Shown in pieces: positions 1,530 to 1,656 of a stretch of DNA of 8,008 bases (position 1 is the stretch's first letter; each line of letters opens with the position of its first letter). The stretch spans positions 1 to 8,008 of IMG/VR virus record IMGVR_UViG_2534682157_000011; one strand, given 5' to 3'. The translations under genes were made by a program, and so were the position numbers. Source of the stretch: a virus (lineage: Duplodnaviria; Heunggongvirae; Uroviricota; Caudoviricetes). Under the pieces are notes generated by a model that was given only the letters and a program-made list of their open reading frames with translations, was not told the origin of the DNA and did not search any database.

Positions 1530-1656
1530 CAACGCTGAGAGCATTGCCGGTGTCCGAATCGAACGGACCTTTTCCCTGCCCAACCCTCCCATCTGAATGG
1601 GACTGTCTGGAATTGAACCAGCACTTATGCCTTGCTCGTCAATGCTCTCATCGTTG
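1530..1656. ncRNA. Candidate structured RNA: ~20-bp imperfect closing stem enclosing three hairpins (cloverleaf-like); strand and function unknown
   Basis: 1537-1546 GAGAGCATTG pairs perfectly with 1640-1649 CAATGCTCTC, extendable to 1530-1550 / 1636-1656 with 2 mismatches and 1 wobble. Enclosed hairpins: GTCCG-AATCGAA-CGGAC (1552-1568), TCCCAT-CTGA-ATGGGA (1587-1602), CTGG-AATTGAA-CCAG (1607-1621). On the minus strand two loops read TTCGATT and TTCAATT, which are T-loop-like. No ORF with an RBS covers it. Confidence 0.3.

Follow-up and report, generated by a model that had tools for sequence, protein, structure and literature searches.

Genomic setting of the element

The window, i.e., the whole 8,008-nucleotide stretch of DNA analysed here (positions 1 to 8,008 of the Caudoviricetes record IMGVR_UViG_2534682157_000011), carries on its minus strand a 130-nt element that lies ~210 nt downstream of a putative repressor-controlled pL. 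It is flanked by a cI-type repressor and by leftward phage genes without assigned function, and no partner protein could be linked to it. Elsewhere in the window, Rfam matches were obtained for isrK and C4. The features of the leader are as follows, in the direction of leftward transcription.

1874..1925, minus strand: OL operators and putative pL (operators at 1888-1902 and 1911-1925)
1677..1846, minus strand: leader module A, upstream of the element, sequence-conserved in many phages
1660..1676, minus strand: P0 hairpin CCUGG GAAGAGA CCAGG, 2 nt 5' of P1
1528..1657, minus strand: four-way-junction RNA (P1, T-arm 1, P3, T-arm 2 and conserved joiners), 130 nt, identified by R1 match, fold z-score and covariation
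1402..1530, minus strand: leader module S, a tRNA-shaped frame with an acceptor-like stem GUGGUGA/UCACCAC, first and last hairpins and a variable centre
1341..1382, minus strand: terminator-like hairpin (GUACCAG...CUGGUAC) followed by CGCUCUUUUUAC, predicted fold
1246..1344, minus strand: leader module C, a 25-bp stem topped by a small branched structure, whose closing stem is P1-like (ACAAAACAGAGAAGAGCA / UGUUCUUCUCUGUUUUGU)

An operator motif, TTGCG-N5-GCAA, is common to OL and OR (2694-2708 and 2742-2756), which places pL just upstream of the element. The pL hexamers, TTGCAT (1902-1897) and, after a 17-nt spacer, TATCTT (1879-1874), with a start at ~1867, were read from the sequence and were not listed by a consensus promoter scan. 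Repressors of the cI type (HTH + Peptidase_S24) are found upstream in the window and in six of nine sampled diverse loci; in the other three, the nearest ORFs are short and were left out of the domain scan. The element resides in long gaps, with a median of 458 nt after the previous ORF on the same strand and 305 nt before the next one.

Module A precedes the element in the window as well as in the Uetakevirus cassette described below, where it is homologous to that of SPN9TCW. Positions 1641-1846 are ~98% identical to phage cdtI and to Stx2c-converting phages, which are among the 87 phage records that match some part of a query covering 1400-1990. The fold of module A is not better than that of shuffled sequences (z = +0.33). 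Most of the 64 distinct upstream flanks have a hairpin of varying sequence at the P0 position; it is missing mainly where a tRNA-like module abuts P1 directly. Module S has conserved ends and a variable centre, and its relative in locus L006 matches STnc100 with 37.5 bits, below the gathering score of 47. An STnc100 identity was rejected, the only match being this sub-threshold one in the neighbouring module of a single relative. Module C has a predicted MFE of -51.2 kcal/mol (z = -7.8), is conserved in L006-L009 and matches the covariance model of the element (R1, see below) weakly (22.4 bits, E = 5e-4).

Stronger terminator-like hairpins than that of the window, GGCGGnnnC...GnnnCCGCC followed by CUUUUUAC, occur in 74 of 107 loci at a median of 190 nt after the element, and the distance from element to terminator is ~140-220 nt (10th-90th percentile). 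A BoxA-like reading of CGCUCUUUUUAC was discarded, because it is more simply the U-tract of the terminator-like hairpin. Furthermore, the annotations of relatives show no lambda-N-like gene in the interval from the repressor gene to the leftward genes.

Such a setting brings up the main rival to the interpretation developed below, namely that the element is a cis-acting part of the leader that acts on the pL transcript itself, on its synthesis or its stability. It might confer terminator resistance in the manner of HK022 put, shield the long untranslated leader from Rho, or serve as an RNase III-type processing stalk that sets the 5' end and the stability of the downstream mRNA. In favour of this, most loci have the element placed after pL and ahead of a conserved terminator-like hairpin, and an annotated lambda-N-like gene is lacking. 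Also, P1 is a ~20-bp double-stranded stem whose sequence is common to other modules of the same leaders. Indeed, most loci have the element within the 5' leader of the early left operon, where a cis role would be just as fitting. However, put-type elements act at pL and pR, whereas the window has one strong copy, and the overlap of cro and cII leaves no room for a copy at pR. T-loops, moreover, have no known role in antitermination.

A four-way junction with two T-arms

The element is composed of the following parts.

1640..1657, minus strand: P1 closing stem, 5' strand GCAACGAUGAGAGCAUUG, pairing with 1529-1546
1622..1639, minus strand: joiner J1/2 ACGAGCAAGGCAUAAGUG, purine-rich, with near-invariant columns in alignment A3
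1607..1621, minus strand: T-arm 1 (P2) CUGG UUCAAUU CCAG, 4 bp in the window and 6 bp in most relatives
1587..1602, minus strand: P3 variable hairpin UCCCAU UCAG AUGGGA, 6 bp, in the acceptor-stem position
1569..1586, minus strand: joiner J3/4 GGGUUGGGCAGGGAAAAG, near-invariant, with invariant columns TGGGCA and GAAA in A3
1552..1568, minus strand: T-arm 2 (P4) GUCCG UUCGAUU CGGAC, 5 bp
1529..1546, minus strand: P1 closing stem, 3' strand CAAUGCUCUCAGCGUUGU, pairing with 1640-1657, with covariation

The match to R1 (142 bits) covers all 130 positions and sets the limits at 1657..1528. The initial annotation, which was made from the window sequence, had thus found the right region (1530-1656, ~127 nt), but its limits were slightly too narrow. 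It had described an imperfect closing stem of ~20 bp with a 10-bp core, which comes near the structure found: in the minus-strand reading, P1 comprises 18 bp (1657-1640 with 1546-1529), including a perfect core of 11 bp (1650-1640 with 1546-1536), outside of which there are an A.G mismatch (1651/1535), five Watson-Crick pairs and an outermost G.U. The three hairpins of 4-6 bp that it had placed inside this stem are T-arm 1 (4 bp), P3 (6 bp) and T-arm 2 (5 bp). Likewise, its two minus-strand loops of 7 nt, UUCGAUU and UUCAAUU, both fit the tRNA T-arm pattern G53-U54-U55-C56-R57-A58-N-N-C61, and both arms covary.

P1 holds two units, each consisting of a purine-rich joiner and a tRNA-type T-arm, with P3 between them. 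The two joiners form an internal repeat, since 10 of 14 bases in J1/2 and J3/4 are identical as read from the sequence. P3, which is capped by a 4-nt loop, is stacked directly on T-arm 1 in most relatives, such that T-arm 1 (6 bp) and P3 (7-8 bp) follow each other with no linker, much like acceptor stem and T-arm in a tRNA. In the lineage of the window, T-arm 1 has no more than 4 bp, and 4 nt lie between it and P3, and for this reason the minihelix mimicry is weaker here than in the relatives.

On the minus strand, the element folds with an MFE of -49.8 kcal/mol, as compared to -34.3 +/- 3.2 for 200 dinucleotide shuffles, none of which folded as well (z = -4.80); the comparison with shuffled controls that the initial annotation had called for thus came out in its favour. 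The plus strand also folds better than its shuffles (z = -4.51). The single-sequence MFE structure omits T-arm 1 and pairs GAGC with GUUC and GGCA with UGCU instead, but the hairpin GGCA UAAG UGCU is not conserved, and the comparative data identify T-arm 1 as the conserved pairing. A D-arm-like pairing, GGGC/GUCC, in place of T-arm 2 is possible, but two compensatory changes fit only T-arm 2. A hammerhead-like core (UGACGAG ... GAAA) was also considered and dismissed, because its helices do not fit and there is no Rfam match.

The conserved joiners raise the question whether the element is a base-pairing sRNA, in which GAGCAAGGCAUAAG and GGGCAGGGAAAAGG would be seeds for host or phage mRNAs and the helices a scaffold. 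The joiners are the most conserved unpaired stretches, and prophage early regions are rich in sRNAs: isrK and C4 lie in the window itself, and STnc100 and the Pas sRNAs are prophage-borne. However, the element has no terminator hairpin and U-tail of its own, and purine-rich joiners that lie inside a four-way junction beside T-loops would be expected to make tertiary contacts, which makes this explanation very unlikely.

Distribution and covariation of the family

The element is one member of a family with >120 phage or prophage loci in Escherichia, Salmonella, Klebsiella, Citrobacter, Edwardsiella, Yersinia and Brenneria, and the conservation in related prophages that the initial annotation had proposed as a check is thus borne out across seven genera. 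Members were identified in 15 phage records, 79 E. coli genomes and >119 IMG/VR loci, as well as in genomes of Citrobacter, Brenneria and Yersinia. The carriers are temperate phages of enteric bacteria, including Shiga-toxin phages. Among 5,426 E. coli genomes, 79 carry the element, each in exactly one copy, and no copy was found on the plasmids of this collection. The pattern used for scanning genome contigs was too loose, as scoring 100 of the 120 loci retrieved with it against R1 left three true members and 97 chance matches.

Covariation was evaluated in 39 distinct members over 38 base pairs. In this set, 91% of cells are paired, as compared to 36-52% when the partners are slid against each other, and 19 of the 38 pairs show compensatory changes on both sides. 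All four helices covary, and none of 500 shuffles reached the observed values. In P1, seven pairs have compensatory changes, and one pair alternates between U-A, U-G and C-G (pair 17-126 is UG in 20 members, CG in 11 and UA in 7). In T-arm 1, four of six pairs covary, e.g., GGCAGG/CCUGCC and GGCUGG/CCAGCC, and in P3 six of eight pairs have compensatory changes, with a sequence that is lineage-specific and a pairing that is kept. T-arm 2 displays two independent compensatory changes, in Brenneria (GUUCG/CGAAC) and in Yersinia (GUCUG/CAGAC), in members that had been found with no constraint on that arm.

The strand is also clear from these data. R1 scores 142 bits on the minus strand versus 26.6 bits on the plus strand, and P1 is rich in G-U pairs that exist on the minus strand only, whereas the other strand, or DNA, would have A.C mismatches at these positions. 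Compensatory evolution together with 80-95% sequence identity across seven genera points to selection on the RNA fold, and we hold with high confidence that the element is a conserved, folded, functional non-coding RNA of the minus strand.

The same data bear on two explanations that would deny the element such a function, i.e., that it is a decayed remnant of a phage tRNA or that it is part of the coding plus-strand ORF 1460..1885. The T-arm sequences and the tRNA neighbours would fit a remnant. For coding, the ORF has a weak PHROG match (phrog_36251, a family without assigned function) and is annotated as hypothetical in mEp460, 118970_sal3 and F1055; phrog_36251 itself was probably built from the same spurious ORFs. 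Member lengths range from 126 to 137 nt and fall into the three classes modulo 3 as 25/7/6, no reading frame is open in all 38 members compared, and there is no Pfam match. Given the compensatory changes, the identity across genera and the absence of a conserved frame, both versions are exceedingly improbable.

Cassette organisation and payload swaps

In the Uetakevirus phages SPN9TCW, SPN1S and SPC32H, module A, P0 and the element form a cassette that separates the terminase gene from the portal gene. It is encoded on the opposite strand and is preceded by a promoter-like site of its own. Here, the element is followed by a genuine tRNA-Arg(UCU) (ARAGORN; Rfam 71 bits) and then by a terminator. 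The first 3 nt of this tRNA overlap the end of P1. At other loci, this junction marks the start of a tRNA-like module (Rfam tRNA 40.3 bits) or of an acceptor-like helix. In phage 118970_sal3, the element is followed by a module that resembles STnc100 at a sub-threshold score. Furthermore, in mEp460, cdtI and pKN-LS6 unrelated payloads are found on this closing stem, and payloads are swapped at the same site in phages that are otherwise 99% identical. Hence, the double T-arm payload is dispensable for whatever the stem does on its own.

These observations weigh on the cis-acting leader in both directions. The order of element, terminator and gene is kept in the Uetakevirus cassette, as a cis role would predict. 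However, unrelated payloads have been exchanged at one site within flanks that are 99% identical, and the fusion of a tRNA gene to the 3' end in some phages is typical of arrays of RNA genes rather than of regulatory leaders. A cassette with its own promoter-like site and a fused tRNA-Arg lends support to an RNA gene that acts in trans. Overall, we consider a cis-acting leader possible, though somewhat unlikely.

Payload exchange could also be taken as a sign of a feature at the DNA level, such as an inverted repeat (MITE-like or cruciform) or a boundary at which recombination swaps cassettes between phages. The 17-nt arms are indeed inverted repeats, and in phages that are otherwise 99% identical these arms enclose different payloads at one and the same site. 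However, the single copy in each of the 79 E. coli genomes, the many P1 pairs that are G-U on the minus strand only, the strand asymmetry of the R1 score and the compensatory changes in all inner helices have largely refuted this explanation. The initial annotation had named three candidates, and among them the MITE-like DNA element falls. The other two, a prophage sRNA and a tRNA-like module in the leftward leader, gain from the minus-strand covariation and from the OL/pL and cI-type repressors upstream, such that its overall interpretation stands in part.

Comparison with known RNAs

As the initial annotation had held, the element is not a tRNA gene: ARAGORN found neither a tRNA nor a tmRNA gene at this site, and Rfam gave no tRNA match there even at E <= 10. 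More generally, no Rfam 15 family matched the element, either in a search of the whole window at E <= 10 or with laxer filters on 1380-1880, where only noise of <=14.5 bits was seen. The likeness to tRNA lies in the two T-arms, with stems of 4-5 bp in the window (5-6 bp in relatives), a UUCRAUU loop and a closing G-C pair, and in the adjoining tRNA-Arg and tRNA-like genes. In contrast to a tRNA, the element lacks an anticodon arm, a canonical D-arm and an open acceptor stem with a 3' end. Since P3 is closed by a loop, it cannot be aminoacylated.

The bacterial Y RNA YrlA, a tRNA mimic that associates with Ro60/Rsr, has a long terminal stem bearing a T-arm and an 'AS' stem-loop (Chen et al. 2014; PMC4201824). 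In both RNAs, the 5' and 3' ends pair into a long stem, on which a tRNA-like module sits (P1 and P2/P3 in the element), and in both a consensus T-arm is directly followed by a sequence-variable stem-loop in the acceptor-stem position. Both measure ~110-130 nt, and some YrlA RNAs are phage-encoded. However, the acceptor-like hairpin is followed by a D-arm in YrlA and by a second T-arm in the element, which furthermore has no adjoining rsr/TROVE gene and no Rfam match, though Rfam 15 may have no YrlA model. Most hosts of the element are not known to encode Rsr.

Species 1 and 2 of T4 (rnaC and rnaD) are likewise stable RNAs, of 119-139 nt and without assigned function. They are arranged head to tail with phage tRNAs, immediately adjoining tRNA-Arg, and rnaC ends in a perfect T-arm. 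However, they belong to the tRNA cluster of a virulent phage rather than to a repressor-controlled leader, and they lack the double T-arm four-way junction. No homology in sequence or structure was detected, with R1 scoring <= 10.6 bits on T4 68-74 kb with filters off.

The put RNA of HK022, a cis-acting antiterminator of ~70 nt with two stem-loops and no T-loops, is present at both pL and pR. Like put, the element is a structured RNA just downstream of pL and upstream of a terminator, with no annotated lambda-N-like gene. Its architecture is different, being four-way, 130 nt long, present as a single strong copy in the window and fused to a tRNA in some phages.

STnc100/PasD (RF02076; Zhu, Shabalina and Storz 2026 preprint) shares with the element that it is a prophage-borne enterobacterial RNA, and module S of the window has the same frame. 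However, the element itself has no STnc100 match in Rfam, and in STEC the canonical copy has been reported downstream of stx2 rather than in the pL leader.

The four-way junction, the invariant joiners, the internal pseudo-repeat and the terminator-like hairpin downstream would be compatible with a ligand-sensing, riboswitch-like aptamer that controls this terminator. T-loop motifs do occur in known aptamers, e.g., in the FMN riboswitch. However, there is no expression platform and no Rfam riboswitch match. The 3' strand of P1 directly abuts a tRNA, a tRNA-like module or module S, and the terminator follows only ~140-220 nt further on (10th to 90th percentile), past variable modules. We thus regard an aptamer as highly improbable.

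The element was not described in the literature that we searched by sequence words and by topic.

As a separate observation, there may be a link between the element and the Gifsy-1 determinant of RtcR activation (PMC9879122).

A candidate early-expressed tRNA mimic

How do these pieces fit together? In our best reading, to which we give a probability of roughly 0.45, the element is an early-expressed RNA that mimics tRNA, is cut from the leader and acts in trans. Under control of the putative pL, it would be made upon infection or induction, but not in the lysogen, together with the other structured and in part tRNA-shaped modules of the leader, ahead of a terminator-like hairpin and the first leftward gene. 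In a first step, enzymes that process tRNAs and double-stranded RNA would free the module. RNase P cleavage would take place at the tRNA or acceptor-like helix whose start lies within the final 3 nt of P1, with P1 or P0 as a possible further target of RNase III or RNase E. The chances that the element is indeed excised as a discrete RNA seem about even to us. In a second step, the freed RNA could persist as a stable mimic of one or two tRNA elbows, which would bind or titrate a host or defence factor that recognises the shape of tRNA. Such a decoy function in trans is plausible, but unlikely.

A broader proposal can be made as well. In temperate enterobacterial phages, the early left transcript would start with modular RNA cassettes, in which an unvarying processing stalk, ACAAC..AGAGCAYUG / CARUGCUCU..GUUGU, presents interchangeable folded payloads. 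tRNAs and tRNA-shaped frames would adjoin these payloads head to tail. The double T-arm payload would be a hitherto unrecognised class of mimics of the tRNA elbow, produced within the first minutes of infection, that blunts tRNA-directed host defence or reprograms tRNA-processing enzymes. As a whole, this proposal is speculative and distinctly unlikely.

Phage tRNA regions are emerging as counter-defence loci, since host systems such as Septu cut tRNAs (PMC13096335). This makes the conserved double T-arm mimic a concrete candidate for an RNA counter-measure or for a regulator of tRNA-processing enzymes. If our reading is correct, many temperate phages of the Enterobacterales, including the Stx2a-converting phages of E. 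coli O157, open their lytic programme with a tRNA-shaped RNA that no curated database lists. The element would also account for the 'hypothetical proteins' that have been placed over this gap in several phage annotations, and the long, seemingly empty stretch from cI to the first gene becomes a testable RNA operon. The fold itself, being small and covarying well, is suited to structural work.

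Position in the leftward leader

The window derives from a lambdoid prophage of the SfV / mEp460 / Stx2a_1447 type, of which it represents the immunity and early region, and its positions 1400-1990 match Escherichia phage 1720a-02 and the Stx2-converting phages Stx2a_1447 and WGPS2 at 99.5-99.8%. The genes and sites that frame the element are the following:

1981-2673, minus strand: cI-type repressor gene with HTH and Peptidase_S24 domains
2771-3031, plus strand: cro
3024-3575, plus strand: cII-like gene
ATG at 1202: first leftward gene, 120 aa, phrog_204, function unknown
1888-1902 and 1911-1925: operator-like palindromes TTGCG-N5-GCAA at OL
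2694-2708 and 2742-2756: the same palindromes between cI and cro (OR)
Start near 1867, minus strand: putative pL promoter, TTGCAT / 17-nt spacer / TATCTT, read from the sequence

The positions of cI and of the first leftward gene place the element in the gap of ~780 nt between them, where neither the whole-window scan nor a focused rescan gave an Rfam 15 match at E <= 10. The palindromes common to 1888-1925 and 2694-2756 mark OL and OR for this immunity type, and their repetition at both sites places OL and pL at ~1874-1925. The minus-strand TTGCAT-17 nt-TATCTT promoter is plausible, though not among the hits of a promoter consensus scan; with a start near 1867, the element would thus lie ~210 nt into the leftward leader. 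The terminator hairpin of cI is found at 1962-1942 (minus strand).

Fold of the element

The initial annotation had described a closing stem around three hairpins with T-loops at 1530-1656, and all of these are present on the minus strand at 1657-1529:

1676-1660, minus strand: P0, a hairpin upstream of P1
1657-1640 pairing with 1546-1529, minus strand: P1, the closing stem; its perfect core spans 11 bp, beyond which come one A.G mismatch, five further pairs and, outermost, a G.U
1621-1607, minus strand: T-arm 1, CUGG UUCAAUU CCAG
1602-1587, minus strand: P3, UCCCAU UCAG AUGGGA
1568-1552, minus strand: T-arm 2, GUCCG UUCGAUU CGGAC

As had also been proposed, this is not a tRNA gene (ARAGORN calls neither a tRNA nor a tmRNA), and the 127-nt stretch folds better than its dinucleotide shuffles, with an MFE of -49.8 kcal/mol versus -34.3 +/- 3.2 (z = -4.8, 0/200 as good; the plus strand has z = -4.5). 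A hairpin in the single-sequence MFE structure, GGCA UAAG UGCU, is not conserved, and the real helix is T-arm 1 as originally drawn. Most of 64 distinct upstream flanks have a P0, set 2-3 nt before P1, constant in position and variable in sequence, the chief exceptions being loci with a tRNA-like module directly against P1.

The joiners J1/2 between P1 and T-arm 1 (ACGAGCAAGGCAUAAGUG) and J3/4 between P3 and T-arm 2 (GGGUUGGGCAGGGAAAAG) are almost invariant in the A3 alignment. Their stretches GAGCAAGGCAUAAG and GGGCAGGGAAAAGG agree at 10 of 14 positions, and a T-arm follows each of them; this makes the element an internal duplication of a "purine-rich joiner + T-arm" unit with P3 between the copies. 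In most lineages, a 6-bp T-arm 1 abuts a 7-8-bp P3 with zero linker, which matches the acceptor/T-arm minihelix geometry of tRNA; in the window's own lineage, with a 4-bp T-arm 1 and a 4-nt linker, this geometry is weaker.

Covariation and strand

There is good support for the element being a functional, structured RNA of the minus strand. RNAalifold on A3 (36 distinct aligned sequences) recovers P1, T-arm 1, P3 and T-arm 2, and the four-helix counts were made both on A3 and on A4, a model-based alignment of 39 members. Standard pairs occupy 91% of cells, a share that drops to 36-52% on sliding the 3' partners by 1-3 columns; both sides change in 19 of the 38 pairs (142 cells), and no column shuffle among 500 reaches any observed pairing measure. 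Covarying pairs number seven in P1, four in T-arm 1, six in P3 and two in T-arm 2. For the last of these, the compensatory changes in Brenneria (GUUCG/CGAAC) and Yersinia (GUCUG/CAGAC) are informative because the first search pattern had held T-arm 2 fixed, these members being found by a pattern anchored elsewhere; they also settle the choice between T-arm 2 and a competing D-arm-like pairing, GGGC/GUCC, in favour of the T-arm.

With respect to the strand, P1 is rich in G-U pairs, which would read as A.C mismatches on the opposite strand (at pair 17-126, 20 members have U-G, 11 have C-G and 7 have U-A), and the covariance model of the element scores 142 bits on the minus strand of the window versus 26.6 bits on the plus strand. 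A repeat acting at the DNA level is a less likely explanation, and the MITE among the initial candidates has to be dropped, other genomic copies being absent (one per genome in 79 E. coli genomes); the reading as an sRNA or tRNA-like module in the leftward leader stands. A relic or coding sequence is likewise less likely. Members are between 126 and 137 nt long and split 25/7/6 by length modulo 3, no frame is open throughout all 38 members on either strand, and ORFs overlapping the element have no Pfam match. Public annotations call a plus-strand ORF at 1460..1885 a "hypothetical protein" (mEp460_037, 118970sal3_00050, F1055_0036). Because no frame is conserved across the family, this ORF is most likely spurious, as its annotated counterparts probably are.

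Other modules of the leader

The element of lambdoid phages follows cI-type repressors of differing immunity types and shares their strand; it is found in long non-coding gaps (median 458 nt from the previous ORF, 305 nt to the next). The leader of the window runs from module A through P0, the element, module S, a terminator-like hairpin, module C, a small hairpin and a ribosome-binding site to the first gene:

1846-1677, minus strand: module A, conserved in sequence
1530-1402, minus strand: module S, a tRNA-shaped frame with acceptor-like stem GUGGUGA/UCACCAC and variable centre
1382-1341, minus strand: terminator-like hairpin and U-tract, separating the RNA modules from the first leftward gene
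1344-1246, minus strand: module C, a branched and very stable hairpin (-51.2 kcal/mol, z = -7.8) whose stem has 25 bp

Positions 1641-1846 are ~98% identical to phage cdtI and the listed Stx2c-converting phages, all of which belong to a set of 87 phage records that the wider 1400-1990 query hits at least in part. Module A folds no better than its shuffles (z = +0.33). Module S keeps constant tRNA-frame ends, GUGGUGAAUGCGCAGGCUGAUGCGC ... GCCGG..CCGGYCACCACAAC, around its variable centre, and a relative in phage 118970_sal3 gives a sub-threshold STnc100 match (37.5 bits versus a gathering score of 47). The arms of module C (ACAAAACAGAGAAGAGCA / UGUUCUUCUCUGUUUUGU) are similar to P1, and the module is kept in Salmonella, Klebsiella and Citrobacter phages.

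The terminator also exists in stronger form, GGCGG...CCGCC and then CUUUUUAC; 74 of 107 loci have it, at a median of 190 nt past the element and with covarying stems. The conserved hairpin with CUUUUUAC is seen at 1341-1382 (-) of the window and in L022, L192, L140, L178, L004 and L252. Many relatives, though not the window, have a long terminator loop with a GGAGG motif and then AUAAUGUUCU, a possible mini-ORF that hints at translation-coupled attenuation.

The stem itself can hold other sequences. mEp460 and cdtI, with flanks that share 98-99% identity with the window, carry an unrelated 39-nt payload between the same P1 arms. A third payload, of 43 nt and again followed by tRNA-Arg, is seen in a prophage on Klebsiella plasmid pKN-LS6, and some IMG/VR phages have additional stalk-enclosed modules. 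The arrangement is one of a constant stem with interchangeable payloads, the shorter ones lying at the same site in otherwise near-identical phages:

L002 (mEp460) 2629-2701, L003 (cdtI) 2445-2517, L251 2531-2603, L252 2531-2609: P1-type stem with unrelated shorter payload

Association with tRNAs and possible function

The Uetakevirus SPN9TCW has a promoter-like site, module A, P0 and the element in the same order, flanked by the terminase and portal genes and placed on the opposite strand, so that module A accompanies the element in this cassette as well. A genuine tRNA-Arg(UCU) (ARAGORN; Rfam 71 bits) comes next, its first three bases being the last three of P1, and then a terminator and a gene. 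A real tRNA-Arg adjoins the element in 4 of 122 loci and a tRNA-like module adjoins it downstream in five more and upstream in others, while the acceptor-like helix of module S begins at the same junction, the 3' end of P1, in 54 loci. The tRNA-like module has good acceptor, D and T arms, and a tetraloop hairpin and a conserved ~60-nt insertion replace the anticodon loop (Rfam tRNA model 40.3 bits, no ARAGORN call):

L178 1255-1382 (-); also L053, L056, L129, L022, L020, L107: tRNA-like module adjoining the element

A motif in its insertion, UGAGCACUAAYCAAGGWUCAUAA, resembles J1/2.

We favour the reading of element and leader as RNA genes, because the element is fused to real tRNAs, is autonomous in Uetakevirus, is followed by a terminator after the RNA modules and has tRNA-like geometry. 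How it works we can only infer: as an early RNA operon, repressed in the lysogen, the leader would have its modules separated by tRNA-type processing, with RNase P acting at the acceptor-like junction and possibly RNase III on the stalk, and the module with the double T-arm would act in trans as a stable mimic of the tRNA elbow. The main rival, in which the element acts in cis within the leader (by antitermination, by shielding it from Rho, or through mRNA processing or stability), accounts for the leader position equally well; we regard it as possible, if rather doubtful. A base-pairing sRNA or a riboswitch is less likely.

Relation to known RNAs and distribution

The element does not belong to the tRNA, put or STnc100 families or to any other family in Rfam. 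In architecture it comes closest to the bacterial Y RNA YrlA, in which a long terminal stem is combined with a T-arm and an acceptor-like stem-loop (PMC4201824). These three features are common to both RNAs, whereas YrlA has a D-arm in place of the second T-arm, and the element lacks the linkage to rsr. The nearest genomic analogy is provided by the T4 species 1 and 2 RNAs, which are stable, of unknown function and next to tRNA-Arg. At its end the species 1 RNA, rnaC, forms a perfect T-arm (CCGGG UUCGAAU CCCGG), and rnaC and rnaD directly follow tRNA-Arg (L250 2909-3172 (-)). They show no homology to the element, and their position is an old parallel to its arrangement. A literature search by topic and sequence words found no published description of the element, which may be listed anonymously in large-scale candidate sets such as PMC10690425. 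It is a new variant of tRNA-mimic non-coding RNA.

BLASTN finds the element at 80-99% identity in 15 phage records, including Stx2a phages, Salmonella SPN1S, SPN9TCW, SPC32H and SPC32N (Uetakevirus), 118970_sal3, F1055, Edwardsiella EPP-1, Klebsiella Kp4866-6 and Citrobacter phiNP. It is carried by 79 of 5,426 complete E. coli genomes, each time as a single chromosomal copy. A pattern scan of IMG/VR gave at least 119 loci, and with the other loci of the comparison at least 120 carry the family; true members from Citrobacter, Brenneria and Yersinia were added by a scan of species-representative genomes, whose pattern was too loose and which therefore returned mostly noise. The family is of interest as it is widespread, strongly covarying, absent from Rfam, present in Shiga-toxin phages and directly testable.

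Elsewhere in the window, three tandem copies of the isrK sRNA followed by the C4 antisense RNA lie on the plus strand at 3931-4119, 4791-4979 and 5639-5826, all exceeding the Rfam gathering scores (60-62 and 82-84 bits). Together with the sub-threshold c4-a1b1 target matches that accompany them, they look like three consecutive antirepressor control modules.
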